Origin: a virus
Length of the DNA stretch: 64,000 nucleotides
IMG/VR virus record: IMGVR_UViG_3300025570_000007
Strand: one strand, 5' to 3'
The first letter of the stretch is position 1. Every line of letters starts with the position of its first letter. A model generated the notes under the pieces. The model was not told the DNA's origin, did not search any database, and saw nothing but the letters and a program-made list of their open reading frames with translations. This document shows, piece after piece, positions 4,876 to 52,659 of this stretch. The position numbers and the translations under genes are program-made.

Positions 4876-5181
4876 TTATTTTTTCTTTTCAATTGTCTTC
4901 TGTGCAACTTCCAGTTTCTTTATTTCCGGTACTCTTTCTATTGAGGTATTCTTAAACGCTGCAAAAGCTTCTGGTGCTGATTTTGTTGTCAATATCTTTA
5001 CTTTCATGATAGCGTTGTTTGTATTACCGTCGTGGGATACCTGGCCTACTGTAAGTACTCCCGGGACTGCTCTTAACATTTCTCCGATATCCTGTACGGT
5101 TATATCTTCTGTGTGAGTAATTCGTACCATAGCTTGGTATATTGAGAATTGCGTCTCTGCTATTATGTCTACTAGTTTCAT
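4876..5181 (-). CDS. Hypothetical protein with MKLVDIIAE N-terminal tag
   Basis: ORF track; tightly coupled to its neighbours. Confidence 0.7.
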   Translation of the reverse strand: MKLVDIIAETQFSIYQAMVRITHTEDITVQDIGEMLRAVPGVLTVGQVSHDGNTNNAIMKVKILTTKSAPEAFAAFKNTSIERVPEIKKLEVAQKTIEKKK

Positions 5182-6323
5182 TATCCTATATAAATTACCA
5201 TCGGAACTCCTTGAAGGATTTTAGATGAGTTATCAGCCTCTTGAGCTTTTCTTTCTAATTGTGAGCTTCTAGAGGTTTGTTCTAACATCTCTCTTAAATT
5301 CTCTAATAAAGCAGCTTTCTCCAGTCTTGCGTCAGTAAGTAGATCTTGCTGGTTTAGTATAGTTTCCGAACCTGGGATAGGTACTGTTGTGTATTTTCCT
5401 CTAATATAGGCTAATAGCTCTTTTGTGAGAGCTAAGGTATAGTTTCTTATCCACTGTTTACCTACACTGTTTATTCCCGTATACACAGGATTATCGTAAG
5501 GAACTTCTCCGACATTTGACACTAGTCCTGCGCCGTCTAGTAATGTTGCTGCTCGTTTTTCATCTACCTTATAGTACTCAAAGGTATATATACCTCCTAC
5601 TTTAGGTTGTGGAAATATTCTTAATTGATTATTTACCAACTCGAAAGTGTATGTTGATTTTCTAATCTGATCATTAAACTCAATTGCTTGAATCTTTAGT
5701 ACATCAAAAGATGCTGGCATTAGCATAAAATTAACTCCTGGACTATATGATCCGAAATCAAATGCATCCATAAGTGATTGAATACCTGTCCCTGTTCCTG
5801 CATATGGATCAAAGTAACGTAGTATTGCAGGAGGTGCTTCATAGAATACTTTTCTCACTTCTATACTTCCTGTTATATTTTGGTCTATTGCCCATTGGTT
5901 CAGATCGTATTTTTGAATACTTTGAGTAACATTTAACTGACCTGTATACTTTGTTGCAAATCCACCAACATCTGCCTCTGTTCCGTAGTTTTTTGAAATC
6001 TGAATTACTCTATCTAAAGTGGGGTTAATTATCTTATTATTTATAGAGACTGAACTGTTTGTTCCTTCTAATGAAATATAATTCTCTCTAATCTTGTACT
6101 GAAATACTTCGTTTCCGTATGCTGAAACAGCTTCTTCAAAGGCAGTGTAAAAATTTATATCTTGTAACTCCACATCCATTAGAGGCCATCCTAGTCTATG
6201 AGCACAGAAACTTGCTACCTTATCAGCATCAGCTTGAAATTCTAGATCATTATCATAAAATCCAAACGGAGTCTGTCCGGGAGTGAATGCTGAAGTACCT
6301 GTCCAAGTTTTTATGTCTGCCAT
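5181..6323 (-). CDS. gp13: Neck protein, gp13-like head-tail adaptor
   Basis: RLGWPLMDVEL, WIRNYTLALTKELL..IRGKY..PIPG motifs and C-terminal PMVIYIG. Confidence 0.75.
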   Translation of the reverse strand: MADIKTWTGTSAFTPGQTPFGFYDNDLEFQADADKVASFCAHRLGWPLMDVELQDINFYTAFEEAVSAYGNEVFQYKIRENYISLEGTNSSVSINNKIINPTLDRVIQISKNYGTEADVGGFATKYTGQLNVTQSIQKYDLNQWAIDQNITGSIEVRKVFYEAPPAILRYFDPYAGTGTGIQSLMDAFDFGSYSPGVNFMLMPASFDVLKIQAIEFNDQIRKSTYTFELVNNQLRIFPQPKVGGIYTFEYYKVDEKRAATLLDGAGLVSNVGEVPYDNPVYTGINSVGKQWIRNYTLALTKELLAYIRGKYTTVPIPGSETILNQQDLLTDARLEKAALLENLREMLEQTSRSSQLERKAQEADNSSKILQGVPMVIYIG

Positions 6324-6341
6324 TTGTTTAGTTAATTTATT

Positions 6342-6348
6342 ATAAATA
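6342..6348 (-). promoter_or_regulatory. Putative late promoter TATTTAT
   Basis: 19 nt upstream of the neck operon. Confidence 0.6.
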
Positions 6349-6423
6349 TGAAGAATTTACTTAATAGGGCACTAAACTGCGGAGTGTACGTAAGCTTGTG
6401 GGTACCTTGACATTCTATATCTA

Positions 6424-6570: not shown

Positions 6571-6576
6571 TTTGAT

Positions 6577-8103: not shown

Positions 8104-8105
8104 GC

Positions 8106-9866: not shown

Positions 9867-10553
9867 TTAATCCCTAAAGGTTTTATAAACTTCTAGTAGT
9901 GGGGATACGATGGTATGTCTATGGTTTGCTAATAGAGTATATATCTTAAAGCCTTTAACATGCTCTTCTAATCTGAAAAGAAAACTAAAACCTGTATCTT
10001 TCTTATCTTTTAAATCTATCTGTGCCAAATCTCCACAGATTACCATCTTAGATCCCTTACCTAATCTGCCCAATACAGCTTCCATTTGGGAATGGGTAAC
10101 GTTTTGAGCTTCATCTACAATAATAAAAGCATCTGTAAATGTTCTTCCTCTTAGAAATGCGAAAGGAACTATTTCAATATTTTCCTTCTCTAATTCCTTA
10201 TCTACCTTTTCCTTACTATATAGCATGTATAGGTTGTGATAGATTGGAGCTAACCACGGATCCATTTTATCCTTTATATCTCCTGGTAAAAATCCTATAT
10301 CTTCTTTAGACACTGTTGGTCTTGTTATTATTACCTTCTTTACCTGTTTTGTAAATAACATATCTAATGCAACTTGTGCTGCTACTAAGGTTTTACCGCT
10401 TCCTGCCATCCCTTTCAGCACGGTTATAGGATTTGTAAGAATAGTAGCTTTTGCTTCTTTCTGTTCTTCGTTTAGTTGTAAGTTAAATTTAATTGGATTC
10501 TTCGGTCTGCGTTTTTGAGTAAATATCTCATCAGTGTGTGAATTACTTGCCAT
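9867..10553 (-). CDS. phoH: PhoH-like ATPase
   Basis: GMAGSGKT, ITRP, GFLPG, RGRTF, DEAQN, GDLAQID motifs. Confidence 0.95.
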   Translation of the reverse strand: MASNSHTDEIFTQKRRPKNPIKFNLQLNEEQKEAKATILTNPITVLKGMAGSGKTLVAAQVALDMLFTKQVKKVIITRPTVSKEDIGFLPGDIKDKMDPWLAPIYHNLYMLYSKEKVDKELEKENIEIVPFAFLRGRTFTDAFIIVDEAQNVTHSQMEAVLGRLGKGSKMVICGDLAQIDLKDKKDTGFSFLFRLEEHVKGFKIYTLLANHRHTIVSPLLEVYKTFRD

Positions 10554-10656: not shown

Positions 10657-12264
10657 TTATATAGTCTCTAAATCACTGATGAAGATCTTACCGTAAAATT
10701 CTGGTCTGATCATTTGTTTAGCGTAACGAGTCATGATACCTTTACGTGGAGTAAAAGTTTCTGGATCGTATACTAACGGTGTCATCATTAACGGAATGTA
10801 TGGAGCATATACAGCACCTGTTTCCAAGAATTGAGAACCTCTGTATCCCATAAGGATTGTGTTTTCAGTCATGTAAGGGTTTTTGTATACCTTGTAACGT
10901 CCGTTTAATGATCCGGCTTTTTGTACACCGAATGCAAAGTCCATTTTGTCACCGTCTGTGTTAGCAGCAAATCCTGGAATAGATTCTAAGATTGTAGCTA
11001 CTGTTGGAGATACTACTAAGAAGTTAGCTCCACCACGTAAAGTTTTTTGATGAATTTTGTTTGAGATCTTTTGGATTTTAGTACCAAGTGTTTGGAACCA
11101 TTGTCCTTGAGTGTTATAGAAATCTGTAGAAGCAGCTGTTCCTGAAGACCAAGCTCCATTCTCATATGTTCTGTTATTTCTAGCTGACCACTTTTCAGTT
11201 GTACGAGCACCTAAGATTAACATATCTAAGATCTCTAAATCGATCTCCATAGAGATATATTCAGACAATAGAGAAGTTAATTCAGCTTCTGCGTCAATGT
11301 TTTGGTAAGCACTAAGATCTTGAGAAAATTCTGGTGTCCATTGTGCTTTTAACTTACGTGTTTTAGCAACAATTGCTTCAGAAGCAAGTTCTACGTTGAT
11401 CTCAGGAATACTGATTGGATTGTTTGCTGAGTTTAAAGTTGTGTTACCGTCTTCAAAGTCACCTCTCTTATTATCAGTTGGTTGTTTGTGATAAACAACA
11501 GATCCTGTGATTGATGTATCTACTGATGTAGCAGATTTTGCGATAACGAAAGTTACTGCATTTCCTGATACTGTAGTATACTGTGGTAAACTTGTTACGT
11601 CTGCTGATGCAGATAAGATTCTAAAAGCTCTTACGCCTTCAGCATCAAAGTTAGTACCTGAAAAATCAACTGCTACTGTGTAGTAGTCGCCTGGATTAAT
11701 TCCAGCTTCAAATCCGATAGATGCAGATGTTGCAGCTCCTACCCCTTGAGTGATGGCTAAAGAAGCCGAGTTGATTGTGTATCCAAATCTTCCTGCTCCG
11801 TAAAGACCTCCGTCTACGTCTTGATCTACAGCCATTTTACTGTTTGCAGTTGAAACGTTTCCGTAGATATTGTCTCCTTCAGAGAAAGGTGCATTACCTG
11901 ATCCGTATTTAAAATCTAAGTAAAATACAAGTCCTGAAGGTAAATTCATTGGTTGTACAGATACAAAGTCTTTAGAAGCGATTTGAGCGAATACTTTACG
12001 TACTAATGGTAAAGCTACTCCTGCCCATTGTTCTCCTGAACCGGCTGTGAAGCTTGCTCCTGCAGTACCGTTACCGGTAACAGAACCTTCAGATACGATT
12101 CTTTTAGCTTGATTCTCAAGAATCATAGCCATGTTATTTTTCTCGATTTCGTTAGAGATTCCCTCTAATAATCCAGACTGTTGCCATTTCCCAGCTAAAC
12201 GTGCAGCATCTGCTTGTACGCTTTTGTAAGGGTTAGCACTCTCTAATAATTGGTTAATTTCCAT
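10657..12264 (-). CDS. gp23: Major capsid protein, T4 gp23-like
   Basis: VSVQPM, AKTRKLKAQWTPE..QDL, DAEAELT..LS..I..EID, YAPYIPL, GIMTRY motifs. Confidence 0.97.
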   Translation of the reverse strand: MEINQLLESANPYKSVQADAARLAGKWQQSGLLEGISNEIEKNNMAMILENQAKRIVSEGSVTGNGTAGASFTAGSGEQWAGVALPLVRKVFAQIASKDFVSVQPMNLPSGLVFYLDFKYGSGNAPFSEGDNIYGNVSTANSKMAVDQDVDGGLYGAGRFGYTINSASLAITQGVGAATSASIGFEAGINPGDYYTVAVDFSGTNFDAEGVRAFRILSASADVTSLPQYTTVSGNAVTFVIAKSATSVDTSITGSVVYHKQPTDNKRGDFEDGNTTLNSANNPISIPEINVELASEAIVAKTRKLKAQWTPEFSQDLSAYQNIDAEAELTSLLSEYISMEIDLEILDMLILGARTTEKWSARNNRTYENGAWSSGTAASTDFYNTQGQWFQTLGTKIQKISNKIHQKTLRGGANFLVVSPTVATILESIPGFAANTDGDKMDFAFGVQKAGSLNGRYKVYKNPYMTENTILMGYRGSQFLETGAVYAPYIPLMMTPLVYDPETFTPRKGIMTRYAKQMIRPEFYGKIFISDLETI

Positions 12265-12292: not shown

Positions 12293-13441
12293 TTATTTTA
12301 TAATTCCTGCTAGTTTCTGCATTCTTCTAACAGCGTCTGATGCTTCAGAGATAATCTCTGGTTTTGCAGCAGTAGTTCCGGTGGCTTTTGAAGCTCTACC
12401 TAATTTTGCTTCTTGTATTTTGCGTCCTCTTATAGGCTTAGCAATTACGTTTTTAGAAACAGTTTCGTAAACTAATTTAACTTCTTTTACTGTCTCAGCT
12501 TTATCAAATGCAGTGATAATATTCACTTTTTGAGACTCGTTTAAATTATTTACTTTGAATACCTTATTTACATAAAGTAATTTAGCATTAAGAAGATTAA
12601 CTTCTTGAAGTTGTTTCTTAAGTACGTTAACTGTCTTAACTGCCTCTTTCAAGTCAGCTTTTACTTCTTCCACAGTTTCTTCTTTAGATTCTTCTTGTTC
12701 GTTTCTCATTGCTGATCCGGCTCCGGCTCCTAAGTCCTGTAAAAGTGCTATTGCTTTTGCAGCAATAGGTCCTCCTTTAGCTACTAGAGCTTTTAATCCG
12801 TCAACGATACTATCAAGTCCAGCTGCAGCTCCTCCGGTTGGTTCTCCACCAAATTGACCTTCGTTTGCTTCGCCTTCTTCCATTGCAGAAAGTTCTCTAA
12901 GAAGTTCGTCTAAATCAATTTCCTCTTCTTCTTCTGCTCCCATCATATCATCAGCAGGCATTTCTTCGCCTGGTAATTCTTCTCCTGGGATTGGTTCTCC
13001 TTCTAGTCCACCTTCGCCAGCCTCTTGGCCAACTATGTCTCTAATAAGGTCTTTTAAATCGTCGATAGTTAAATCTTCAATTTCTAATTCGTCTTCAAGT
13101 TCACCTTCTTCGCCAGCTTCTGCTTCGTCTTCAGATTCTTCTGAATCAACCTCGGCTTCGTCTTCTAGACCTTCTTCTTCCTCTTCGAAAGTAAGTTCTT
13201 CCTCAAGTTGTTTAGTCTGTTCAGTTGTGTCTTTCGTGTTAACGTCTACTTCTCCACCTTGGATTTCATCAACTGTTTCTTCATCAGACTCTTCCATCTC
13301 TTGAAGTTTTGCAGCTAACATGCTTTTTAAATGAGGTGTCAATGTTTCCTCTAAAGCGTCTTTAGCGTTGATTATAGCAGCTTCACGTACAGACTTCGCG
13401 GCAGCAATAGCTTCCTTGAATAGTTCTTTGTTGTTGTGCAT
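12293..13441 (-). CDS. gp22: Prohead scaffold/core protein, gp22-like
   Basis: Highly acidic coiled protein just upstream of the capsid gene; many (L/I)xE sites; C-terminal RMQKLAGI. Confidence 0.8.
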   Translation of the reverse strand: MHNNKELFKEAIAAAKSVREAAIINAKDALEETLTPHLKSMLAAKLQEMEESDEETVDEIQGGEVDVNTKDTTEQTKQLEEELTFEEEEEGLEDEAEVDSEESEDEAEAGEEGELEDELEIEDLTIDDLKDLIRDIVGQEAGEGGLEGEPIPGEELPGEEMPADDMMGAEEEEEIDLDELLRELSAMEEGEANEGQFGGEPTGGAAAGLDSIVDGLKALVAKGGPIAAKAIALLQDLGAGAGSAMRNEQEESKEETVEEVKADLKEAVKTVNVLKKQLQEVNLLNAKLLYVNKVFKVNNLNESQKVNIITAFDKAETVKEVKLVYETVSKNVIAKPIRGRKIQEAKLGRASKATGTTAAKPEIISEASDAVRRMQKLAGIIK

Positions 13442-13610: not shown

Positions 13611-14237
13611 TTACTTCTGAAAGATTAATACATCTTCGCTGTCAAAGAAAAGAACTGATGTTTTAAATCCGCTTTCATCGTTTGGAGTATACCCTACTTC
13701 TGTAGGATCTAGTGTATAGTTTATAGCAAAACCATCTTCGATTTCTTTTGCGTTTTCAGGATCTGTTAATATCTGTTGTCTTTGACTTTCTAGATATTTT
13801 AAAAGTTCTTTAGGGTCTCTATTATCTTTTACCTCAACATTACCAGGAGATCCGTAATCTGTTTCAGTGCGTACAGGTCTGTTAAGATCTATCCCTACTT
13901 TCTTGAAGAGATCAGCTACTGATATATCTTTTCCGCTTATGTAGTTAGAGGTCTCCTCTTTTTCGTTTTCTTTAATTCCCTGGAGGTAATCTCTAACGAT
14001 TGAGTCGATTTCGTCTGTGTCTTTACTTGAGATTAAAGAGTCCCAAGTATTCCATCCTTGTTGATCTTCATCATCTCCTGTTAAATCATCGTAAACCTGT
14101 CTTAATACCTCTTGTCCGTATTTTTTCTCAATATAGGTTTGTGCGTTAAATTCCTTGATTACTGTGTTAACTCTCTTACTATCGAAAGTTTGTTTATTCT
14201 CTATTAAGAATTTTTTAAGGTCGAAATTGTCTGCCAT
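13611..14237 (-). CDS. Acidic hypothetical protein, putative internal head protein; moron-like unit
   Basis: MADNFDLKKFLIEN tag, internal IKE sites; has its own promoter and terminator. Confidence 0.7.
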   Translation of the reverse strand: MADNFDLKKFLIENKQTFDSKRVNTVIKEFNAQTYIEKKYGQEVLRQVYDDLTGDDEDQQGWNTWDSLISSKDTDEIDSIVRDYLQGIKENEKEETSNYISGKDISVADLFKKVGIDLNRPVRTETDYGSPGNVEVKDNRDPKELLKYLESQRQQILTDPENAKEIEDGFAINYTLDPTEVGYTPNDESGFKTSVLFFDSEDVLIFQK

Positions 14238-14262: not shown

Positions 14263-14293
14263 TAAATATATGTGTTTTTTATCGTTTTTGCAA
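14263..14293 (-). promoter_or_regulatory. Bacteroidota-type sigma promoter
   Basis: TTG-N20-TATATTTA. Confidence 0.6.
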
Positions 14294-15262
14294 CTGTTTA
14301 TCTAAGTAATCTTGGTAAGCTTCTGCTTCTTCTGGTCTCATTTCTCTATCTATCTCGATTGAGTCGTAATCAGTTTCGCCATATGATCCTGCAGCTATCC
14401 CTACATAATACTTACCTGTGCTTGTACTTTTTCCGTTCATCTCAACATCATACCCTTCTCTTTCTGATTCATCTTGATCCCAAGGATTATCTGTTCCTCC
14501 GTATGGAAGTACTCCGTCTTCTGTCCACTCTATGTCGTCTGGATGTTCTAATGTATTTTCTTTAACACTTCCTTTACGTTTTGCTAATTCTTTCTTAACA
14601 TCTTGTATATCTTGTTCATTTCCTTCGTACCTTGATAGATTAACAATCATATCAGCTAGTGCATCATTAGAATATCCTTCAAGACCTTCAATAACAATTA
14701 ATTTAATTACATCTTCCTTAAGTACTCTCTCTTTAGGTGTTAATCCTTCAAATAACGATTCATATGCCCATTGATGTAGTTGATCTGCATGCTGATCCTG
14801 TAATCTGTTTAATTGATCATCTGTTAACTCGGTTCCATCTTCAAAATTAGCTGTTGCTATGAAAGTATCGGTAAAATCAGGGTAATCCCTATCATCTACA
14901 CCGTCTAGTTGAACTGTTCCCATGTCTACCTTCTTTCCGTCAATAGTTCCTGCTGGTTCTACTGGTAAGTCTGGAGATATTTGGAATCCTTTAATACTTT
15001 TAACGCTATATGTGATTTCCCCTATTTTATCTTTTAGTAGAGCTAATGCTTCATCTTCGCTACCTGCTTCTACAGTGTATCCATAGTCTACTCCTGGTCT
15101 ACTCTCTACATTTACAACTATCTTATACTGTAAAGGCTCTTCTTTAATGACTCTATGGGTAACTAGCTTATTTTCGTTAGTATTATCCTCTGTTAAAATC
15201 TTTTTACCTTGTTCCTCCTTATAGTTAGTTAGAAACCTGTAATAGTTGAATCTTTCTCCCAT
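14279..15262 (-). CDS. Acidic modular protein, putative internal head polyprotein
   Basis: Modules separated by LTE, IKE, LFE, LKE, VKE; contains a DGVDDRDYPDF module. Confidence 0.65.
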   Translation of the reverse strand: MGERFNYYRFLTNYKEEQGKKILTEDNTNENKLVTHRVIKEEPLQYKIVVNVESRPGVDYGYTVEAGSEDEALALLKDKIGEITYSVKSIKGFQISPDLPVEPAGTIDGKKVDMGTVQLDGVDDRDYPDFTDTFIATANFEDGTELTDDQLNRLQDQHADQLHQWAYESLFEGLTPKERVLKEDVIKLIVIEGLEGYSNDALADMIVNLSRYEGNEQDIQDVKKELAKRKGSVKENTLEHPDDIEWTEDGVLPYGGTDNPWDQDESEREGYDVEMNGKSTSTGKYYVGIAAGSYGETDYDSIEIDREMRPEEAEAYQDYLDKQLQKR

Positions 15263-15840
15263 TATGCTCTTAATATGTCGTTAATTAGATCGTGTGCTTT
15301 ACAGTATCTGGTGCAAGCTTGCTTTCCTTCGTTTAAACTTACTGGATTCATAAATGCTCCATGTGTTGAAGGATTAGATACAAAGTCCCAGCATACTAAC
15401 TCAAAATCAGGCTGTACTTCTAATGTTCCTTCATTTGTTTGTTCTACTGATCCTGTTCCTCTTGATGAAATACCTATTGTATGACCTGCTTTTACAATCT
15501 CCTTTACAATATTTCCTGAAGGTGTATTAAGAAGTTCTATTCTTCCTTTCAGTTCATCACCATCCCACCATAATTCTTTGATTATATGTGATGCATTCTT
15601 TAAAGACACTACTGCTGATTCAGGATGATCTAACTCACCGTAAGCATTCCCGTTCTTTACAAACTCGTCTACATATTTTTGAGCTTCAGTTACTAAAATC
15701 TCTTTTTTATATACTCTCCCGTTCTGGTTTTTAGCTCCAGCTCTTTGTAATACACCTTCTACCTCAAAAACACCAGGTCTTTGCTTAGATTCCCTAAGGA
15801 TAGGTTTAAACGATGTTATATCTACAAGTAATTTTGTCAT
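15262..15840 (-). CDS. gp21: Prohead protease, T4 gp21-like
   Basis: NQNGRVY, GELDHP, GISSRGTGS, DFVSNPS motifs. Confidence 0.95.
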   Translation of the reverse strand: MTKLLVDITSFKPILRESKQRPGVFEVEGVLQRAGAKNQNGRVYKKEILVTEAQKYVDEFVKNGNAYGELDHPESAVVSLKNASHIIKELWWDGDELKGRIELLNTPSGNIVKEIVKAGHTIGISSRGTGSVEQTNEGTLEVQPDFELVCWDFVSNPSTHGAFMNPVSLNEGKQACTRYCKAHDLINDILRA

Positions 15841-15846
15841 GTTCTT

Positions 15847-16098
15847 TTAGTTTCCTGTTCTACTCTTTACTCCTTTGTATGCACCAAGTAAGTGACTGGC
15901 TATTGATTTAGCATCCATGTTTGTTAACTGGTCTGCTGATCTTCTGTAATGTTCTGCAAGCTTATATAAAAGTTCCTCCATTTCCTCTGCAGAAAAGTAT
16001 CGAAGTTCGTCCATTATCTGTTCTACACTCTGATTTTTATTATTAGAGCTTTCGTACAGTTTAGCTTTCCAGTTATGTATATCGAAATCTGATTTCAT
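15847..16098 (-). CDS. Hypothetical protein (likely start MKSDFDIHNWKAKLYE)
   Basis: ORF track 15847..16146; the internal ATG at 16098 sits directly after the upstream stop. Confidence 0.65.
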   Translation of the reverse strand: MKSDFDIHNWKAKLYESSNNKNQSVEQIMDELRYFSAEEMEELLYKLAEHYRRSADQLTNMDAKSIASHLLGAYKGVKSRTGN

Positions 16099-16099: not shown

Positions 16100-17875
16100 T
16101 TACTTTTTTCTTTTAGTATATTTTCTTTTTGGAGACTTATTCTCATTAACTTCTCCTCCTGCTGGATTCTGTCTTATCATTTCCTGCTGTTCTGGTGATG
16201 CTACTTGTGTCTTAGGTAGCTCTATCGATCTGTATTTCTGAAGGACTGGTTCTAAGTCTTTTTTAAATGCTGCTGATATTGCTGGTGCCATAAATGGACC
16301 TATGTTTGTATATATATTCTCAATATTCTGTCTAGTGTCTAGATAAGTCTTTTCAATCTTAGCGATATGATCTGCTAAATCTGTAGCTCCTTTACGTATA
16401 CGTGCTGCTAGGTCTTCGTTATCACTATTTTCATAGTTGATATACCTTTCTAAATTTTCTGCTCTAGCTTCTTTAAGAAGTTTTCTGTCTTCTGTAAGAA
16501 TACCTGTGATCATTTTCTTAAAGGTTTCTTTAAGTTGTTCTCTTACTTTATTTTCTTCATATACACCGAAAGCATCTTCCTCTGATCGTTCTGCTGCTCT
16601 ATCTGATGCATTTCTATCTTGGGATGCTCTTATTTTAGCGTTCTTTAAAGAAAGTCCTTTTGCTACGTATCTCTTAACTAATGCGTCAAATGATTTTGAA
16701 GCTTCTTCTATATTATCAGTACCTTCTTCAACACTCTCTTCTACTTCCTGTAAATTACTTGCAAGATAGTCTACTAAATCTTTCTTAGCGTGTGGAATCA
16801 TTCCTGGCTCTGTCATAGGACCGTCTTTCCATTCATCCCATACTGCAAGTAAGTGTTTGATAGCTTTTTCTAATCTTGGACCCATAGACTCTACGTATCC
16901 TCCATTTCCATAATCATCTTCTTTTACTATCTTACCTCCTTTAATTTTTCTTGCTCTACCTTCTTCTAGAGATTTTGCACTATTTAAAGCTTTAAGTATT
17001 ATCTCTTTCTTTGATAATTGATCAGATGATAATGTTTCCTCTCCTAAATCAAAAAGTCCTTTAGCTTTCATTTTCTTAACCCAAGCTTGTCTACTCTTTC
17101 TATGTTCTTCTCTTCCAGCTGGTGATAGTTTTTTATGGTGATTAAGTCCATCTACCTTTCCTTGATACTGGTTAGTAGCTTTAGGGTAGCTTGGATGTTT
17201 CATTTCTTTAAAATTAGTCTTCTTCTTATCCATTACCATTTTTGCTATACTTAGACTACGTCCCCAAAGACTTGTTGGATTAGCATCTATATAGTCCTGT
17301 ATTTCATCAGCGGTTAAATCATCCCACTTTGGATGCTCACTCATGGAGTTCTTATCTCCTTTCTCAAAAGCCGGAGTTCCATGAGGTGAAAATTCACTTA
17401 TTTTACCTTTTTTAGATTCCTTTAGTGTAGCTTTCTTAAGTCCGTTATAAGTATCAACAGTATTTTTTGCTGTTGCTGGTGTCATTTGGTCATGTTTATC
17501 TACTTTCTTAGAATCTCCTGACATTAAATGCAAGTAGAAGTTACAGTCTTTAGCTAAGTTTTTCATAACTTTAGCTTTGGCTTTTTCATAGTCACTCTTT
17601 TGTACAGTTCCTACTGTATCGATACCCATTTTTTCTAACTCCACGTCAACACCTCTCTGAATTGATTCTAATGAGTAGTTCTTTTCAAGATCTGCTGCTG
17701 GTGTTTTTTTAGCCTCTACAATCACACCTTTATTCTTAAGAATCTGTACAGTGTCTTTGTATCCGTTAAAAGGACTAATGTAGTTAGGTAGCTGTAGTTT
17801 AGCATCTCTAACAAATTGTGTTTTAGAGAAGTTATTCTCTAATATTGCGTTATATTTTTCCTGTAGTGTCTTCAT
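16100..17875 (-). CDS. Putative prohead core/internal polyprotein
   Basis: Starts MKTLQE; many (L/I/V)xE sites; lies between portal and protease. Confidence 0.65.
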   Translation of the reverse strand: MKTLQEKYNAILENNFSKTQFVRDAKLQLPNYISPFNGYKDTVQILKNKGVIVEAKKTPAADLEKNYSLESIQRGVDVELEKMGIDTVGTVQKSDYEKAKAKVMKNLAKDCNFYLHLMSGDSKKVDKHDQMTPATAKNTVDTYNGLKKATLKESKKGKISEFSPHGTPAFEKGDKNSMSEHPKWDDLTADEIQDYIDANPTSLWGRSLSIAKMVMDKKKTNFKEMKHPSYPKATNQYQGKVDGLNHHKKLSPAGREEHRKSRQAWVKKMKAKGLFDLGEETLSSDQLSKKEIILKALNSAKSLEEGRARKIKGGKIVKEDDYGNGGYVESMGPRLEKAIKHLLAVWDEWKDGPMTEPGMIPHAKKDLVDYLASNLQEVEESVEEGTDNIEEASKSFDALVKRYVAKGLSLKNAKIRASQDRNASDRAAERSEEDAFGVYEENKVREQLKETFKKMITGILTEDRKLLKEARAENLERYINYENSDNEDLAARIRKGATDLADHIAKIEKTYLDTRQNIENIYTNIGPFMAPAISAAFKKDLEPVLQKYRSIELPKTQVASPEQQEMIRQNPAGGEVNENKSPKRKYTKRKK

Positions 17876-18050
17876 CTAAGTAATCGAACATTTTAGTATT
17901 ATGTGGTCTTTTTTTTCCTTTAACTTTCTTAAAAGCTTTTGGAGATCCTGTTTGTGCTCCTGATCCTGGTGTAAATGAAGCTCCACCCCCTGTGGTGTTC
18001 ATCTCCTTTATTACACTTTGAACAAAATTTGTTAATTCACTTCTCTTCAT
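17850..18050 (-). CDS. Small head-region protein
   Basis: MKRSEL...VIKE|MNTTGGGASFTPG. Confidence 0.6.
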   Translation of the reverse strand: MKRSELTNFVQSVIKEMNTTGGGASFTPGSGAQTGSPKAFKKVKGKKRPHNTKMFDYLDEDTTGKI

Positions 18051-18901
18051 TACTTCTTTAATTCTTGGACCAGCTCGTAATATTGCATTATATTTACAAG
18101 ATGATCGTCAGTTACTCTTTTTGTTTTAGGTACCGGTATAATTGTCTTAACTACTTCCTGTAGTTTAATTCCAATAATTTCATCTTCAACGTCATTACCT
18201 ACCTCTATTATAGCTACTCTAAGTTTACTTAGCTCTTCATTTACTATATTTCTCAACCTAGTTGAGGAATCTACTGATGTTATAAATTCTCTCAGTATAT
18301 TTTTTTGCTCTGGTAAAAGAGATTTGTACCTTTTATTAAACTTCTCTAAAAGTATCTTAAAGGTCAGTAGTTTTAAATCTTTATCGTATTTAGAATATTC
18401 TTCTATTAACGTATCTTTTACATCATCCTTATCCTGTTCTGCATTTGTAAGATGTTCCAGTAAGGTTGTCTTATTATCAATAAGTACCTCTGGATCGACA
18501 ACATCTGTGGCTTTATGGGCTTCTAGTAAACAGTATAATGCTGCTAGTGGTTTATAGTCTGGTACTTTTATTGAAAAGAATTCCTCTACGTCGTAACTTT
18601 CTTTAATTTCCTTAATAAGACTGTATTTCTGTTTCTTAAGGGTATCTGAATTAACCGTTCTAGATATTTCTATGATGGTTGATACGATAGATTCTGCCTT
18701 ATTTTGAGATACTGCTCTATTCTTAAGGATGAACTCATACAACTTAAATTCACGCACTAACGCTGTCTTACCTGTATAGAAGTTTTTTAATATCTTCACA
18801 GCAGGGGAATCTTGATTATTTAAAGTATCGGCAGCAATTTGTTTTACTAGCAACTCAAATATCAGTCCCGTATTTTTATACTTACTATGTTTTATGCGCA
18901 T
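18050..18901 (-). CDS. Conserved head-morphogenesis protein (putative prohead core)
   Basis: IKHSKYKNTGLIFELL N-terminus; directly downstream of the portal gene; has a late promoter. Confidence 0.6.
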   Translation of the reverse strand: MRIKHSKYKNTGLIFELLVKQIAADTLNNQDSPAVKILKNFYTGKTALVREFKLYEFILKNRAVSQNKAESIVSTIIEISRTVNSDTLKKQKYSLIKEIKESYDVEEFFSIKVPDYKPLAALYCLLEAHKATDVVDPEVLIDNKTTLLEHLTNAEQDKDDVKDTLIEEYSKYDKDLKLLTFKILLEKFNKRYKSLLPEQKNILREFITSVDSSTRLRNIVNEELSKLRVAIIEVGNDVEDEIIGIKLQEVVKTIIPVPKTKRVTDDHLVNIMQYYELVQELKK

Positions 18902-18954: not shown

Positions 18955-20895
18955 TTAATTATCTAAATCTATAATTAGGTCTTCGTTCAGTAGCTCGTCC
19001 TTCTCTTCTATAGGTTCTTCAAAGATAAGTTTTTTCTTTTCTGTGAACATTTCTTTGTTCTGTAAAAAAACTTGCTTTGCAATAGTTCCTACTCTAGCTG
19101 GTGATTTACTACTTTCTTGAACGTTTTCATTATCTGAGGGGTATCCTCCTTTCATACCGTGTCGTCCTAATGGATCTCTTCCTCCCATTCCGTCGTTTGT
19201 TCCGTAATGTGATGCATGTGTTCTTGGTGCTCCACCTTCTGGTCCAGGTTCCCCTACTTGATGAGGTCCTGTTGGGTTTGGATGATCTTCATACCCTGCT
19301 GGTACTTCTCCGAAAGAGACTCCCTTATCTCCTTCAAAAGCTCTTCTACCGTATAGTGTTGCTAGATCGTGAGGTGTTCCGTATGATTTTCCTGATTTAG
19401 ATGGATCGTTACCTTCGTTCTCTATTTGAGCTAATCTAAATAATCGTTTGTGATCTTCAGCAATTAGGTCTCTCATCTCTATGTATTGATCCTCTGATAA
19501 GTTAAATATATTGTCGTAGATAAAGTCAGTTGAGAATAATTTAGAGTCTCTCATTTGATTTGCTAAATCGACTTTTTCTTTCAGTAATGCTACCTTCTCT
19601 TGTTCAAAGATAATTGAAGGATTTGTAAGTTTAATTTCGAAGTTAGTTAGAGCTGCTCCTTTAAACCCTTGTGCGTATAAATGTACTAGTGCTATCTTGG
19701 TTAACTCTGATTCTAATATTCTCTGTACTCTCTCTACAGTGTGAGCAAACCTAACATCTTCTGCTGCTATAGTAGCTTTACCCGATAAGTCTTCTTCATA
19801 TCCGAAATAAGCTTTTGGTATTTTAAGTGCTGCGAATAGTTTAGCTCTGAGGTATTCTATATCGTTTGTACCGTCGTATTGTAGACCTGGTGTAGTTTCA
19901 ATTCTTGTTGATTGATCTCCTCCTCTTATTGGAAGGTAAAAATCTTCCATCATGTTCATCATGTTGAAACGTAAGTTGTAATCCCCTGTCTGTGGATCAA
20001 CGTACGGTGTTTTCTTCATGGTATTAATAGTCTTCTGCATGAACTGCTCTACCTCTTGAGGTGGAATCTGTCCTACGTTAACATAGAAGGTTCTCTTCTC
20101 AGGAGCTCTCATTATACGATGTATTAGCATCGCATCTTCCATTAAGGTTAGCTGTTTATATATCTTTCTACCTGGTTCTATGTAAGCTCGTCCGTACGGT
20201 AAGTAACTTGTATCTGCTATTAACCTAAAGTGAGCTACTTCGTAATTATCAAACTCTAATATTTTTGAATTGTCTCTGCGATGTACTGTAGGATCTTGTG
20301 ATGCTGCAATTCCGTCAGGGTCTAACTGGAATGTTACCTTGGTTGGGTTTTCAGGGTCAAGACCTTCTGTCCTTGTCATATGGTACACCGTATAAGGTAG
20401 TACGTTAAATACTCCAAACTCTTCTGCAATCTCTAATTTTAAGAAAAAGTCACCGTATTTACACATATTCCTTGTCCAAGACCATAGGTTAAATTCTATG
20501 TTAAGTACGTCGTAAAATAGATTGTAAAGTACTCTCTGCAGGTTTTCATCAGAAGATTTAATAGAGAGTACTTCTCCCATATCATTCTTTAGAGTCGCTT
20601 CATCCGCTATAATATCTAATGCTGACATTATAATTGCATCTGAGTCCATTGCTTCATAATCTGCGTATAGTTGGATACGGAGTGTTTGGTAATTTAAATT
20701 AGGGTTAAATATATTTTTATTGTTGTAAATATATAATCTCGAGAACCTGTCAACAAGTGAGTTTGTCTGGTATTTCCCTGTTTTCTGTATTTGATTTACA
20801 TCAACTACTTTTAACTGGTCGCCGCCAACATTTCTTATTACTACATCAGAAGAAAACAATCTTCCTAGTCTCTTAAATAGTGAAGTATCTGCCAT
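18955..20895 (-). CDS. gp20: Portal vertex protein, T4 gp20-like
   Basis: LMEDAMLIHRIMRAPEKRTFYVNVG, MMEDFYLP.RGG, AEDVRF motifs. Confidence 0.95.
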   Translation of the reverse strand: MADTSLFKRLGRLFSSDVVIRNVGGDQLKVVDVNQIQKTGKYQTNSLVDRFSRLYIYNNKNIFNPNLNYQTLRIQLYADYEAMDSDAIIMSALDIIADEATLKNDMGEVLSIKSSDENLQRVLYNLFYDVLNIEFNLWSWTRNMCKYGDFFLKLEIAEEFGVFNVLPYTVYHMTRTEGLDPENPTKVTFQLDPDGIAASQDPTVHRRDNSKILEFDNYEVAHFRLIADTSYLPYGRAYIEPGRKIYKQLTLMEDAMLIHRIMRAPEKRTFYVNVGQIPPQEVEQFMQKTINTMKKTPYVDPQTGDYNLRFNMMNMMEDFYLPIRGGDQSTRIETTPGLQYDGTNDIEYLRAKLFAALKIPKAYFGYEEDLSGKATIAAEDVRFAHTVERVQRILESELTKIALVHLYAQGFKGAALTNFEIKLTNPSIIFEQEKVALLKEKVDLANQMRDSKLFSTDFIYDNIFNLSEDQYIEMRDLIAEDHKRLFRLAQIENEGNDPSKSGKSYGTPHDLATLYGRRAFEGDKGVSFGEVPAGYEDHPNPTGPHQVGEPGPEGGAPRTHASHYGTNDGMGGRDPLGRHGMKGGYPSDNENVQESSKSPARVGTIAKQVFLQNKEMFTEKKKLIFEEPIEEKDELLNEDLIIDLDN

Positions 20896-22555: not shown

Positions 22556-23182
22556 CTATAAAGGCTCGTCTCCTTTTTCAAAATCTACATCTTCACCGCT
22601 AAGGTCTTCAGGTTCTCCAGCTTCATCTCCTAATGGTACATCTTCTGCAGGAGGTGTTTCGTCAAATGCATCTTCTCCAGGTGCACCACCTTCTCCACCA
22701 GGAAATTCTCCACCACCACCACCTCCGGCTGCAAATGGATCATCTGCTCCTCCTTCTTCTTCTGCTCCTTGAATTGGTGCTGTTTTATAAAGTATGGCTA
22801 GTTTATCTAGTGCTTGTTGAAATTCGTCTACTGTACCCAGGAAGTACTTTTTTCCTTGTATAGTTGCTTGGAAGTTTTTTCCTGACCATTTTAGTGTAAA
22901 GTCCTGATCGTTCTGAAGATTAATTCTAAATTCTGTAGGTCGGGGTGATACCCAGTCTATTGTTTTTACAAACTCTTTATAGTCTTTAGTCATTAACTTA
23001 GTTAACGACTTCTTAAGGGTTGGAAATTTTTCAAGCATAGTATCTGTAGCATCCGGTAATACGGCTTCCGTACTTGCTGTTTCGTCTCCTTTTGGGTCTT
23101 CTGGTTGTGGCTCTTCATCTTGTTCTAATAGAACTTCAATATAAGCTTCTTCCATTAATTTTATAAGGTCTCTTTTTTTCAT
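22556..23182 (-). CDS. Hypothetical protein with acidic Gly-rich tail
   Basis: MKKRDLIKLMEE...VLLE tag; central IDWVSPRPTEFRINL domain. Confidence 0.7.
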   Translation of the reverse strand: MKKRDLIKLMEEAYIEVLLEQDEEPQPEDPKGDETASTEAVLPDATDTMLEKFPTLKKSLTKLMTKDYKEFVKTIDWVSPRPTEFRINLQNDQDFTLKWSGKNFQATIQGKKYFLGTVDEFQQALDKLAILYKTAPIQGAEEEGGADDPFAAGGGGGGEFPGGEGGAPGEDAFDETPPAEDVPLGDEAGEPEDLSGEDVDFEKGDEPL

Positions 23183-24707: not shown

Positions 24708-25169
24708 TTATTCTGGCTTTTTATTCCCTACAATTTCTTTATAGTCCTGCATAGTAAGAATCTCATCATGTGTACTTCCTAACCTTATTGCTCTTTCTGC
24801 TACATCGTGAAGATCCATATCTGATTTAGCGTCTTCTTTTGCGTATTCTAATAACCGTATAAATAGTGGAATATCTAATGTTACCTTATCAGCAGGATTT
24901 TCAGATTCCCCTACGAAGTTTAACTCTTCTTCAGTTTCTGCAGCTGCTACTAGGTCCATTAGGTGCCTGTCTTGAAGCAATTCGGTGTTTAGTGCCGTAA
25001 ATGCGTTCATAAAATCATCTCCTCGTCCTACATGTGCTATATAATCTCGACCATCCTCGTAGGTATTCTCTAAATACTTTGTTAGTGATTCAAGTGCGTC
25101 CATATCATACCCCAGGTAGTATGTATTGTCTTCGGTAAAAGCTTCTACAATTAGCTTACTTAGCTTCAT
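24708..25169 (-). CDS. Hypothetical protein with MKLSKLIVE tag
   Basis: C-terminal DIPLFIRLLEYAKEDA..DMDLH module; late promoter. Confidence 0.7.
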   Translation of the reverse strand: MKLSKLIVEAFTEDNTYYLGYDMDALESLTKYLENTYEDGRDYIAHVGRGDDFMNAFTALNTELLQDRHLMDLVAAAETEEELNFVGESENPADKVTLDIPLFIRLLEYAKEDAKSDMDLHDVAERAIRLGSTHDEILTMQDYKEIVGNKKPE

Positions 25170-25185
25170 ATTAATGTATTTTTAT

Positions 25186-25192
25186 ATAAATA
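25186..25192 (-). promoter_or_regulatory. Putative late promoter TATTTAT
   Basis: 17 nt upstream of ATG 25169. Confidence 0.6.
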
Positions 25193-25775: not shown

Positions 25776-25920
25776 TATTCAACTTTATTTTATATTCATG
25801 ATAAGCTTCAGCAAATTTTAACATCACTTTCCACTTCCTTCCAGCACTTCTTCCTCCTGTGTATATCTCTCTAGGTTGTTTTGCTGACCAGTTACGGTAG
25901 TATTCTTCAACTTCACTCAT
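25768..25920 (-). CDS. Small hypothetical protein (50 aa)
   Basis: Manual translation MSEVEEYYRNWSAKQPREIYTGGRSAGRKWKVMLKFAEAYHEYKIKLNNE; overlaps both neighbours by 8 nt. Confidence 0.6.
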   Translation of the reverse strand: MSEVEEYYRNWSAKQPREIYTGGRSAGRKWKVMLKFAEAYHEYKIKLNNE

Positions 25921-49644: not shown

Positions 49645-49652
49645 TTGTTTTT

Positions 49653-49925
49653 TTATCTACTTAAGTATTTTGAAATTTCAGTTGCCATCTTAGTACAATT
49701 ATCACGACTCATTCTATAAGTCCCTCTACTAAAAGTATCAGATAGTTGTTCTATTAATTCCTCTAACTCCATACCCTTAAACGAAGTATTAGCGAATTCG
49801 TATACGCCTCTTCCACCTAGGTATACATCGTACATTTGACACTTACCATCAGGACATCTTGCATCTTCTTTAGGTTTAATTTCAAATGGAGAGTTACTTT
49901 CTTTTATAATGTTAACTAGTTTCAT
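49653..49925 (-). CDS. Small protein with MKLVNIIKE tag inside the baseplate operon
   Basis: ORF track. Confidence 0.65.
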   Translation of the reverse strand: MKLVNIIKESNSPFEIKPKEDARCPDGKCQMYDVYLGGRGVYEFANTSFKGMELEELIEQLSDTFSRGTYRMSRDNCTKMATEISKYLSR

Positions 49926-49951
49926 ATTTACTTTAGTATTATTTTAATTTA

Positions 49952-51775
49952 TTATAGAGTTGTAGTACGACCTTTTATATCTATATCTGGGTGTTTAACT
50001 TCGAATATCATTATATCATAGGAAGGGTAAACTATATTATTTCTAGTTGCTCCTTCAATATCGTATGCGTATGTTGAGTAATTACCTCCTTGTTTATTTA
50101 CGATTTCTACTTTCTGTACTGTCTGTACTCCTGTAACTCTGTCAAGCAAACTATATATTGCAGATAAATTAACTGGTTGGTTAATGCTCCATTTGTTTAT
50201 TGCAAAATAATCTTTTAACGTATTTGTACAAGCTAATAAAACATCTCTACTGTTGTAGTTAGGTCTTACTAGTATATCAAAATTTACTCCAATATTTACA
50301 ACAAAAGCATCTTTTATGTTTATTGAATCTGTTAAGAGCATATATTGTGATAGGTATGTCTTTAGGTTCTGTTTAAGGTTTCTTGTGGCTACAAGTAAGT
50401 TGCTATTATTATCATAAGCTAATACATATAGTGAAAGTGCAAGCGGGTTACTATCCACTATGTTATCCGTAGTTGAACTGTCGCTATTCAATTCATCTTG
50501 AGTAATGAATACCTTACCTACTGTCCCGTATTTTGGCGGGAGAGACATAGCTCTAACTGTATAATCTTGTAGTGTAACTGCTCTTCCTTGCTCTGAAAAT
50601 GCTCTCATTGCATTCTGCCTCAGCTCTTCTACTGTATCTCCATCTTTTCCTCCTATAGCTGCTTTAGGGTTATTGAAAGCTAATGTACTTTGGTAAGTAG
50701 TATCTACGGCTGTTGAAGTTGCTGTATACTGTGTTAATGTGTTTGCAGGTACGTTTGAAGATATTCCACCTCCTTTTAAGTACCTGATTGTTAAAGTGGT
50801 ATTAGAAGGAGCTAATCCGTATGTCTGTGTATATAGGAAGTTTGAAGGATCGTAAGCAATACTTAAAGTACTTATACCTTGATTTGTTCCCATTCCAACA
50901 TTTGTAGGATCAGGTGTAAATGTTGAATCGTCTGTTCCCGTTACTCCTGCTCCAAATTGAACTTCTAATTGCCCTTCCGAATTGAATCTTGTAACAAATC
51001 TTCTTGGAACTTTCTGTAAATTCATAAGATGAGGTACACTATTTGCATCGTATTCTGAATTAGATTCGTTTACATATATTGTCTCTTGTCCTAGAAAAGG
51101 AACTTCGTACCATATGTTATCGTTTTCATCTACTATATCTAAAATCCCAATAATATCGGTATCGTCAATAACTACCGTTGTATACTTTTCTGCATTAGTG
51201 AATATCGATGTAGTTGTTTTAACTTCTCCTGAGAATGCTTTTGTATATTTCTTAAGTAGGAATTCTACTGGTAATCCTGTACCTGAATCTATTGAATAGA
51301 TTGTTATGTCTGTAGGATCGTATGAACTAGAGTAATTAAAGTCTACTTTCTTATCTATTAGGAAAGGTATATTTCCTGCTGAATCTGAATTTATTACTGT
51401 ATTCTCCGATACTGTCAAGGCTTGGTCAAAGTTTGGTTCACTATCTGATGCATTAGCACTCACTCGTTGAGTTACTTCTACATCTACTTCTGATACTGTC
51501 GTAACTCTTGGACGGTATCCCATCATATAAGCTAAGTTATATAAATTTCCTGGCTCTTTTGCGTACTGTACAAATGTCTCTTGTAACTGTATATCTTGGT
51601 AAAAGGATAATATGTCCCCTACATATGCTGCCATTTCTATGAACATAGTCCCAGGAGCGGTAGGAGAGAAGTCGTTATAAGTATCGGGGAAATAGTTCTT
51701 AGCGTACTCTGTCAGTTGATTTTTAAAATCACCGAACTCCCTGTTTACGTATTTTATATTTCTATCTTGAGCCAT
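49952..51775 (-). CDS. gp6: Baseplate wedge protein, gp6/J-like
   Basis: YFPDTYNDFS, FIEMAAYVGDILSFY, GGKDGDT.EE, RAVT..DY motifs. Confidence 0.9.
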   Translation of the reverse strand: MAQDRNIKYVNREFGDFKNQLTEYAKNYFPDTYNDFSPTAPGTMFIEMAAYVGDILSFYQDIQLQETFVQYAKEPGNLYNLAYMMGYRPRVTTVSEVDVEVTQRVSANASDSEPNFDQALTVSENTVINSDSAGNIPFLIDKKVDFNYSSSYDPTDITIYSIDSGTGLPVEFLLKKYTKAFSGEVKTTTSIFTNAEKYTTVVIDDTDIIGILDIVDENDNIWYEVPFLGQETIYVNESNSEYDANSVPHLMNLQKVPRRFVTRFNSEGQLEVQFGAGVTGTDDSTFTPDPTNVGMGTNQGISTLSIAYDPSNFLYTQTYGLAPSNTTLTIRYLKGGGISSNVPANTLTQYTATSTAVDTTYQSTLAFNNPKAAIGGKDGDTVEELRQNAMRAFSEQGRAVTLQDYTVRAMSLPPKYGTVGKVFITQDELNSDSSTTDNIVDSNPLALSLYVLAYDNNSNLLVATRNLKQNLKTYLSQYMLLTDSINIKDAFVVNIGVNFDILVRPNYNSRDVLLACTNTLKDYFAINKWSINQPVNLSAIYSLLDRVTGVQTVQKVEIVNKQGGNYSTYAYDIEGATRNNIVYPSYDIMIFEVKHPDIDIKGRTTTL

Positions 51776-52185
51776 TATTGTTCAAAGTTTATTACTAATT
51801 CATCCTCTATGTTTGTGTCTGAGATAGAGTATCTCATTAATAAAACTACTGTATTATTATCAGGTGTTGCTTGAACTTCTAATACACTTGGTACAACTCT
51901 AGGAAAATATAAATCCAATCCTTGTTTTACTACATTTTTAATATCGTCAATCTTATCTTCTGTAATATTCTCAAAGAGAAGATTCCTTAACGGGGTTCCA
52001 AAAGTTGGATTTAAGTATCTTTCACCTAATCCTGTTAAAAAGTAATTAACCAAGTTGTACTTAACTGCATCTTTAGATTCATAGGTAGAATTAAATACCG
52101 CAGCTCCTGAAAAGGGGAGCGATACTCCTATTGCTTTTCTAGGCTGTAGATCTAGAGGATTAATTTTCTTAACTTCGTAGGCCAT
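51775..52185 (-). CDS. gp25: Baseplate wedge/sheath initiator, gp25-like
   Basis: LT..GERYLNPTFGT.L..LLFE. Confidence 0.9.
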   Translation of the reverse strand: MAYEVKKINPLDLQPRKAIGVSLPFSGAAVFNSTYESKDAVKYNLVNYFLTGLGERYLNPTFGTPLRNLLFENITEDKIDDIKNVVKQGLDLYFPRVVPSVLEVQATPDNNTVVLLMRYSISDTNIEDELVINFEQ

Positions 52186-52188
52186 GTC

Positions 52189-52659
52189 TTATATTTTACC
52201 TTTTTCTTTATCTTTTTCTAAAATAGCACTGTTAATTGATTTAGCTTTTTTCATAAAATCAAATTGATTTAAGTCTAATCCTGGCTGTGGACCTTGTGCT
52301 GTCATTACTTGTGGGGATAATCCCATTTCGTTTACCATTTGAGAGGCCATATTAGGTCTCTGGTAAGTTTGTGCTATTGAGCTATCTCCTGAAGCTACTT
52401 GCTTAAAATCCCCTTGGCTCATTGAAGCTTTAGTTTCTGCTAATAGCTGTGTTAGTGTATCACCCTGTACTGTATTACCTGTTCCCGGTACTGTCGGTGT
52501 TTTGGCGTAATAGCTTACGTCCTTACCTGGCGATACTCTTTCATTTACTACTGGAGTGCTTGCTACATTAATTGCTTCTGTAAGCATATCTTGTAACTCC
52601 TCCTTAATAGCTGCTTTTACTTCTTCTCGAATGACTTTTCTTAATACGTCTAGTTTCAT
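52189..52659 (-). CDS. Hypothetical protein with MKLDVLRKVIREE tag
   Basis: Late promoter; upstream of gp25. Confidence 0.65.
   Translation of the reverse strand: MKLDVLRKVIREEVKAAIKEELQDMLTEAINVASTPVVNERVSPGKDVSYYAKTPTVPGTGNTVQGDTLTQLLAETKASMSQGDFKQVASGDSSIAQTYQRPNMASQMVNEMGLSPQVMTAQGPQPGLDLNQFDFMKKAKSINSAILEKDKEKGKI

Follow-up and report, generated by a model that had tools for sequence, protein, structure and literature searches.

Short N-Terminal Leaders as Probable Prohead Address Peptides in a T4-Like Flavobacterium Phage

Introduction

Passenger proteins of phage heads act in the host before phage genes are expressed, the classic case being IPI of T4, which blocks a restriction enzyme. 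The genes of the T4 internal proteins occupy few loci and have basic products; when the Glu of the T4 targeting peptide is changed to Asp, cleavage is blocked but targeting persists. Short docking peptides also serve other capsids: examples are the coat-binding peptide of the P22 scaffold and the peptides by which encapsulin cargo and the HK97 prohead protease are loaded, all of them at the C-terminus, where no following protease site removes them. Here we describe short leader peptides at the N-termini of proteins encoded in a 64,000-nucleotide stretch of viral DNA (IMG/VR record IMGVR_UViG_3300025570_000007), hereafter called the window. Their closest described counterpart is the T4 capsid targeting sequence (CTS). 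The T4 internal proteins IPI-III and Alt carry an N-terminal CTS that is removed by gp21 (Mullaney and Black 1996, reviewed in PMC9026906, PMC3012670, PMC8442874). These propeptides comprise 10-19 residues, as in MKTYQEFIAE (PMC9026906, PMC3012670, PMC8442874), where residues 4 and 7 are needed for targeting and residues 8 and 10 for processing by gp21 (PMC9026906, PMC8442874). T-even phages differ in their set of CTS-bearing proteins (PMC9026906, PMC3012670, PMC8442874).

A second point of comparison is given by the giant phages phiKZ, 201phi2-1 and SPN3US, where a gp21-related protease cleaves numerous head proteins after Glu and paralogues have identical N-termini with a diverged remainder (PMC5694885, PMC10052503). 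There too, propeptides are inferred to target proteins to the prohead, and no link to a scaffold tail has been described (PMC5694885, PMC10052503). The giant-phage propeptides are mostly longer than 100 residues with S/A/G-x-E sites, whereas the leaders of the window have 9-16 residues and end in hydrophobic-x-Glu.

The window represents the late region of a T4-like Flavobacterium myovirus and encodes a capsid protein (10657-12264) distantly related to T4 gp23. The identity of this protein to its counterpart in the 160-kb Flavobacterium phage vB_FspM_immuto (hereafter immuto) is 72%. Proteins of the window are on record from a contig of 170,197 bases. All long open reading frames (ORFs) lie on the minus strand, the GC content is about 35%, and the regions 5' of gene starts are AT-rich and without Shine-Dalgarno sites. 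About a dozen proteins begin with an amphipathic leader of 9-16 residues ending in hydrophobic-x-Glu. As in the T4 CTS system, a short N-terminal hydrophobic-x-Glu peptide stands on unrelated proteins in a phage with a homologous S77 prohead protease, and the tagged genes vary among related phages. MKTYQEFIAE of T4 and MKLVDIIAE of the window have the same layout (Met-Lys, hydrophobic residues, x-Glu); the peptides are too short for a homology test. Known here from sequence alone, the system appears to have the sequence-level features by which the T4 CTS is recognised.

We propose, with a probability of about two in three, that the leaders are portable prohead address peptides removed by the gp21-type protease, in a variant of the T4 CTS. 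They would dock proteins on the inner side of the prohead during its assembly. Cleavage after the leader Glu by the gp21-type serine protease would follow, and the head would retain the mature protein as part of the core or as cargo able to leave with the DNA.

Leader Classes and Their Enrichment at N-Termini

Peptides of the system include MKLVDIIAE, MADNFDLKKFLIE and MKKQILSEQFRRMQKLAGIITE. Class A leaders read MKLxx(I/L)(I/L)xE, with longer MK(K/R)SEL..LIKE forms, and class B leaders read M..NFDL(K/R)KFLxEN, with an FDIHxW variant. The strict tags have 9-10 residues, the class A' and class B leaders 12-16. Outside the head module, the leader-bearing genes are the following.

4876-5181, minus strand: 101-aa protein, class A leader MKLVDIIAE (codons 5155-5181), strict tag; core gene adjoining a neck gene
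22556-23182, minus strand: 208-aa acidic protein, leader MKKRDLIKLMEE (codons 23147-23182)
23189-24706, minus strand: 505-aa ORF with a GNAT domain, IKE↓S and an internal leader MKKYSDIKALLE (codons 24344-24379)
24708-25169, minus strand: 153-aa protein, class A leader MKLSKLIVE (codons 25143-25169), strict tag; conserved DIPLFIRLLEYA domain (phrog_23411)
31511-31705, minus strand: 64-aa orphan, class A leader MKLTKLIIKE (codons 31676-31705), strict tag
31707-32024, minus strand: 105-aa orphan, class A leader MKLLQILQE (codons 31998-32024), strict tag
49653-49925, minus strand: 90-aa orphan, class A leader MKLVNIIKE (codons 49899-49925), strict tag; inserted in the baseplate operon
52189-52659, minus strand: 156-aa protein, longer leader MKLDVLRKVIRE (codons 52624-52659); late-promoter-like box at 52665-52673

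The strict tag MKLxx[ILV][ILV]x(1-2)E has five matches in the window proteins, all at residue 1-2 (starts at 5181, 25169, 31705, 32024 and 49925), and none elsewhere in about 20,000 residues. When residues are permuted within N-terminal columns, 20,000 trials yield 0.033 matches on average and at most 2. The codons of the five tags vary (CTA/TTA, ATA/ATT), which indicates that selection works on the peptide; a DNA-level repeat as the source of the common tag is thereby ruled out.

A broader rule, hydrophobic-hydrophobic-x-Glu ending at residues 6-17, is followed by 16 of the 87 window proteins, where internal windows predict 5.0 (p=4e-5). Shuffling each protein's own first 20 residues gives 5.6 +/- 2.2, and none of 2000 shuffles gets to 16. 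The whole immuto genome behaves alike, with 36 of 228 proteins against 14.8 from internal windows and 16.8 from shuffles. The presumed early region beyond 56.7 kb has no such protein (0/24), against 16/63 elsewhere (Fisher p=0.004), at a similar N-terminal composition. The shuffles and the early region rule out translation-start composition as the source of the tag, and the expectation of a sequence-only reading of this DNA, that N-termini would be enriched over internal positions and over early genes, was borne out.

The bias towards N-termini recurs in related phages. Across 80 related loci around the capsid gene, drawn from IMG/VR (320,000 residues), a similar pattern occurs 64 times at residue 2, four times at residue 3, twice at residue 5 and 34 times elsewhere. 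Class A' matches are N-terminal in 22 cases and elsewhere in four; for class A in 160 loci the counts are 166 and 54. Of the 25 occurrences of the class B motif M..NF(D/N)L(K/R)xF(L/I/V)xE(N/S/G)K, 22 are at residues 4-7; the families that carry it number at least 12 and have no other similarity. The second class (NFDLKKFLxEN) named in the sequence-only reading is real; in immuto, class B stands on four unrelated proteins. No paper on leaders in this clade was found in a literature search, and the strings RMQKLAG and FDLKKFL had no matches in a full-text search.

The same reading had listed 15 proteins as sharing an N-terminal peptide that ends in (I/L/V)xE. All N-termini that it quoted are found on the minus strand at the positions given; for MKSDFDIH..., the start at 16098 fits homologues better than a longer ORF from 16146 does. 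With the first 20 residues taken off, the proteins are indeed unrelated at BLAST level. The (I/L/V)xE rule itself is weakly enriched (25/87 against 15.5, p=0.008); the excess is about ten proteins, so the list of 15 includes some chance members. About 12 entries hold up and two or three look like chance matches. The HAD nucleotidase at 26446 belongs to no leader class and its start is ambiguous, and 27433 (MKSALDE) aligns within a fused 907-aa ORF of immuto, to a stretch that is not conserved. In the window, the genes 26783-27433, 27393-27947 and 27944-28798 of a nucleotidyltransferase/HExxH operon (window 25913-28798) are separate and overlapping; their homologous segments form one frame within this single annotated immuto ORF (L001, immuto 107131-109854).

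The Head Module

The gp21-type protease is predicted to be encoded between the portal and capsid genes, in a module with the following genes.

18955-20895: gp20-type portal
17850-18050, minus strand: 66-aa head-module protein, leader MKRSELTNFVQSVIKE (codons 18003-18050)
16100-17875, minus strand: 591-aa basic head-module protein, leader MKTLQEKYNAILE (codons 17837-17875); many internal hydrophobic-x-Glu sites
15847-16098, minus strand: 83-aa protein, class B variant leader MKSDFDIHNWKAKLYE (codons 16051-16098)
15262-15840, minus strand: predicted gp21-type prohead protease (phrog_207, 1e-51; Peptidase_S77, PF03420, 5e-33, above cut-off)
14279-15262, minus strand: 327-aa acidic protein, degenerate class B leader MGERFNYYRFLTNYKEE; weak member
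13611-14237, minus strand: 208-aa acidic protein, class B leader MADNFDLKKFLIE↓N (codons 14199-14237)
12293-13441, minus strand: acidic scaffold protein in gp22 position, N-terminal LFKE↓A site, tail RRMQKLAGIIK (codons 12296-12328)
10657-12264, minus strand: gp23-type major capsid protein (phrog_138)

An N-terminal hydrophobic-x-Glu site is present in 92-100% of the members of the capsid, scaffold, protease, 16100, 17850 and 18050 families, and in 0-20% of those of the portal, terminase, neck and tail families. The 17850 family (n=53) has the consensus MKrs.l..lv.EVl.El and a site in 96% of members; for the 16100 family (n=55) the figure is 95%. Leaders homologous to MKSDFDIHNWKAKLYE occur in relatives as MENNFDIHKWQAKFLKE and MERDFDIHNWQAKFLKE. 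The protein starting at 15262, placed in the second class by the sequence-only reading, is degenerate there (FNYYRFLTN), with Asn in place of the Glu of its relatives, and no homologue of 14279-15262 was found in immuto.

In 30 related loci, the gap between the protease and scaffold genes holds 41 genes of 21 families, 30 of them with class A, class B or similar leaders. Thus, the peptide of the scattered window orphans also heads variable genes at the centre of the prohead module.

The capsid protein follows the same Glu rule. Its N-terminal propeptide region (residues 1-59; 12088-12264) contains LLE8, LLE34, ILE50 and VSE59, and these four Glu residues do not vary among 35 relatives. Since residue 69 corresponds in the alignment to residue 15 of mature T4 gp23, VSE59↓G is the likely maturation site. 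MEINQLLE↓S, noted earlier at the capsid start, is present; it is probably one of four propeptide sites, T4 likewise having several, and as the maturation cut it is set aside, since the T4 alignment points to VSE59↓G.

The protease has an N-terminal site PILRE↓S and ends in ...DLINDILRA. The C-terminus ...K(Y/F)xKLDxIINDILRA is kept in 51 relatives (protease family of loci L005-L084; window site 15265-15291). In relatives, the end KLDxIINDILRA fits the K-L-x-x-I-I pattern of the leaders and of the scaffold tail, and may serve the protease itself as a peptide for docking or autoprocessing.

Other features of the module can be mentioned. The 16100-17875 and 14279-15262 proteins are full of hydrophobic-x-Glu sites and might, like T4 core proteins, be processed to several fragments. 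Beside the portal gene, 18050-18901 encodes a highly conserved 283-aa protein with many hydrophobic-x-Glu sites and 43 relatives (N-terminus MkIKHSKYKNTGLIFELLVKQIAA), for which no family match except a weak zinc-finger PHROG was found. A PhoH-like ATPase gene (9867-10553; phrog_170, 1e-65) lies directly downstream of the capsid gene, within the structural region. In one complete sister genome (G003:C1:97902-101301, locus L169), the capsid-protein gene occurs as a tandem pair, both copies being about 60% identical to the window's; this may represent a gp23/gp24-type duplication; the window has no such duplication.

The Scaffold C-Terminal Tail

The tail ...RMQKLAGIIK of the scaffold protein is kept in 75 of 77 relatives, and in the six frames of the window RMQxLAG occurs there only. 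In a pooled set of the window, immuto and 160 loci (2,908 ORFs, 718,673 residues), 100 of the RMQ-type motifs sit at the very C-terminus of their protein, 58 within its first 25 residues and 10 in its interior, where mis-called starts or fused ORFs account for some. Among the 58 N-terminal copies, 56 are followed by x-Glu within 2-3 residues. Two accessory proteins of immuto, encoded far from the head genes, start with MKKQILSEQF(R/K)RMQ(K/F)LAGIITE↓S. Aligned with M-Q-K-L-A-G-I-I-T-E, the leader M-K-L-V-D-I-I-A-E shares Met, Lys, Leu, Ile, Ile and Glu as well as their spacing. On this ground, class A can be read as a minimal form of the RMQKLAGI leader, and we infer that it may be a minimal N-terminal copy of the scaffold C-terminal tail to which a cleavage Glu was added.

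It is therefore plausible, as an addition to the address reading, that cargo and scaffold would share one docking site. Relatives would use either the full RMQxLAGI(I/L)xE as a leader or the tail at the cargo C-terminus. A wider formulation can be offered tentatively, and we hold it to be somewhat less probable than its negation: in a large environmental clade of T4-like phages of aquatic Bacteroidota, a single prohead dock would serve both the scaffold and fast-changing accessory proteins, the address being RMQKLAGII, placed at the C-terminus as a tail or at the N-terminus as a leader with a protease site, and MKLxxIIxE its minimal form.

Exchange of Proposed Addresses Within One Domain Family

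The DIPLFIRLLEYA...DMDLH domain (phrog_23411) of 24708-25169 has hundreds of homologues. They occur in genomes of sister phages, whose portal and terminase are 57-61% identical to those of the window. Address types were surveyed in 116 homologues, as follows.

C-terminal tail ...KRMI(E/K)LANIK, without leader: 82 members
C-terminal end ...RAGIIK: 6 members
N-terminal leader, without tail: 15 members
Start MSNEFKRMQELAGVPVTE: 2 members
Class B variant leader: 1 member
Leader (MKKSELKKYIKEL) and tail together: 1 member

Within single genomes, the tail of the cargo resembles the tail of the scaffold.

G003: scaffold tail KRMQKLANIIK, cargo tail KRMQKLANIN
G005: scaffold tail RMQKLANIIK, cargo tail RLKKLANIIG
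L128: scaffold tail RWQKLAGIIK, cargo tail RFQKLANIIN

The occurrence of either address type on one domain is the strongest argument that the leaders would be addresses rather than parts of a fold. This swapping is testable in one family only, because 49653-49925 has a single homologue (63% identity, pattern kept as MKLLNILTE) and 31707-32024 has none besides itself among 5.8 billion proteins.

Fused proteins bring evidence of a related kind. By alignment, the N-terminus of 22556-23182 (MKKRDLIKLMEE) corresponds to a linker within an 841-aa ORF of immuto, ...SKSELKEIMLE↓AYIEVL, and so lies at a module boundary of the fused form. In 23189-24706, which has a Pfam GNAT domain at residues 10-78 and a GTG start one base past the upstream stop, the sequence from about residue 125 aligns to an immuto protein from its residue 8. 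That protein starts MKKLIRIVE↓AGEKTAF, which places the internal leader MKKYSDIKALLE at the position of its N-terminus. The window ORF could represent either an enzyme joined before a tagged protein or two products of one ORF. Judged from these alignments, leaders also mark module joints in fused forms.

All 61 members of the 4876 family in related loci have a hydrophobic-x-Glu leader, and among 101 representatives in 1.8 billion proteins the pattern is kept in nearly all full-length ones. In the AlphaFold model of 4876-5181, the first ten residues have a mean predicted local distance difference test score of 56 and form only a short helix (residues 4-7), ahead of a ferredoxin-like domain. A fold search with this model returned generic ferredoxin-like matches and uncharacterised viral proteins only, and no function. 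The product may be a structural head or neck component rather than cargo. In some uncultured phages (P0156, P0165, P0167 and about nine more), the 4876-type domain of about 100 aa is the N-terminal domain of proteins of 1,050-1,104 residues; no Pfam or PHROG match was found for the rest of these proteins, a 1,087-aa fused form having been scanned.

Variation and Expression of the Tagged Genes

Four of the five strict-tag genes have no homologue in immuto, among them 31511-31705. The 49653-49925 gene is an insertion between two baseplate genes, which abut in immuto. The 31511-31705 gene lies in an island flanked by the primase gene and the 32021-32512 gene, where immuto has other tagged genes. 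A stretch upstream of the terminase gene is likewise occupied by tagged genes in the window and in immuto, and these too differ between the two phages. The proposal of scattered, exchangeable cargo made by the sequence-only reading is supported by the four strict-tag genes missing from immuto and by two syntenic, hypervariable islands; it does not extend to the 4876, 17850 and 16100 families, which are conserved core genes with 53-61 members. The orthologue of 52189-52659 is present in immuto, where it begins MKLDLLKKLIKE.

A box TATTTATAW occurs 16 times in the window (8.2 expected), 14 times on the gene strand. It lies 10-25 bases upstream of late gene starts and precedes the portal, terminase and neck genes, as well as the tagged genes starting at 25169 (own box at 25184-25192) and 52659; sites on the minus strand include 6340, 9854, 18942, 20909, 22516, 25184, 38704, 43529 and 52665. 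The box, which in reverse complement reads as T4's TATAAATA, is a candidate late promoter; this would fit, though not prove, late expression of the tagged genes.

Weighing the Address Reading and Its Alternatives

The portable address tag put forward in the sequence-only reading is favoured by the S77 protease, the leader-headed genes of the prohead gap, the capsid-like Glu sites and the variability of tagged genes; the core status of several tagged proteins departs from it. Several further points weigh against the address reading. The idea that a scaffold C-terminus binds the capsid comes from other phages such as P22; in T4-like phages such binding is, to our knowledge, not known. The RMQKLAGI tail is absent from the scaffolds of the T4-like coliphage and of the cyanophage S-RIM2 that were examined, so the scaffold link is specific to this lineage; the T4-like coliphage examined has MLKEQLIAE on gp22 and MAKINELLRE on gp24. 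The likeness of class A to the scaffold tail consists of six matching positions and was noticed after seeing the data. The 4876 family is a universal core gene beside a neck gene, and its conserved N-terminus could be part of a structural protein; the 52189-52659 leader may form the beginning of a long helix. Under the loose (I/L/V)xE rule, chance matches are caught as well. No virion proteome for immuto was found in the literature search. Finally, the tagged proteins and their neighbours have no Pfam or PHROG match beyond phrog_23411 and no recognisable function. Since no tagged protein has a recognisable family, a role in anti-defence or host takeover is a guess.

Among the alternatives, an ordinary structural role survives best, and we consider it unlikely. 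The leaders would then be N-terminal helices or propeptides, cleaved or not, used in oligomerisation or assembly with no portable targeting, and the orphans would be minor structural proteins. The 4876, 17850, 16100 and 52189 families are core genes conserved in the head, neck and baseplate modules, and the 4876 pattern persists over its 101 distant representatives, as it would in an integral part of a protein. However, the same leader of 9-13 residues heads at least 12-21 otherwise dissimilar families, it is replaced by a C-terminal tail within one domain family, it is found at the module joints of fused forms, and the model shows a low-confidence segment before the folded domain.

Recognition of the leaders and RMQKLAGI tails by another partner is a poorer candidate, to which we give a small chance. 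This partner could be a phage chaperone, a modifying enzyme (leader-guided peptide maturation), the portal or the terminase, and the Glu would not be a protease site. A short peptide on unrelated proteins can indeed serve an enzyme instead of a capsid, and immuto encodes GroES/GroEL. Yet the motif is the near-invariant end of the scaffold protein, x-Glu follows nearly all N-terminal copies whereas C-terminal copies just end the protein, leader-bearing genes occupy the protease-scaffold gap, and the capsid propeptide is marked by the same Glu rule.

That the pattern is due to chance, or is a by-product of AT-rich codons after the start in a host without Shine-Dalgarno sites, is very improbable: the AT-rich, Shine-Dalgarno-free upstream regions, the frequency of Lys at residue 2, the modest excess under the loose rule and the two or three chance-like entries of the list speak for it, but permutation (0.03 against 5) and shuffling (5.6 against 16) fall far short of the observed counts, early genes of the same N-terminal composition lack the pattern, immuto and the 160 loci replicate it, and the core set, whose orthologues agree on gene starts, contradicts it.

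Comparison With Known Systems and Significance

If the leaders are prohead addresses, the system would differ from that of T4 in four respects. It has several leader classes, whereas T4 has one. About a dozen genes are tagged, some with acidic products, and they are scattered over the neck, baseplate, replication-adjacent and head modules. One class appears to copy the C-terminal tail of the scaffold. Relatives also place the address at the C-terminus, so that either end is used. As with the P22, encapsulin and HK97 peptides, a short, portable terminal peptide would dock a protein inside an HK97-fold shell, shell binding being inferred here; unlike in those systems, the same motif occurs at either end, with a cleavage Glu added when it is N-terminal.

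The link to the scaffold tail suggests an origin for a targeting peptide, in which the docking end of the scaffold was copied and a protease site added. It also suggests a concrete answer to the question of what a CTS binds, which for T4 is not identified in the literature cited here. The leader peptides could serve to package foreign proteins into these capsids. If the address reading is true, a simple sequence rule would find head-borne proteins in a widespread group of aquatic phages with a cultured member, immuto of Flavobacterium sp. LMO8. It would likewise give a sequence handle to list, from metagenomes, the injected proteins of uncultured phages, counter-defence candidates among them.

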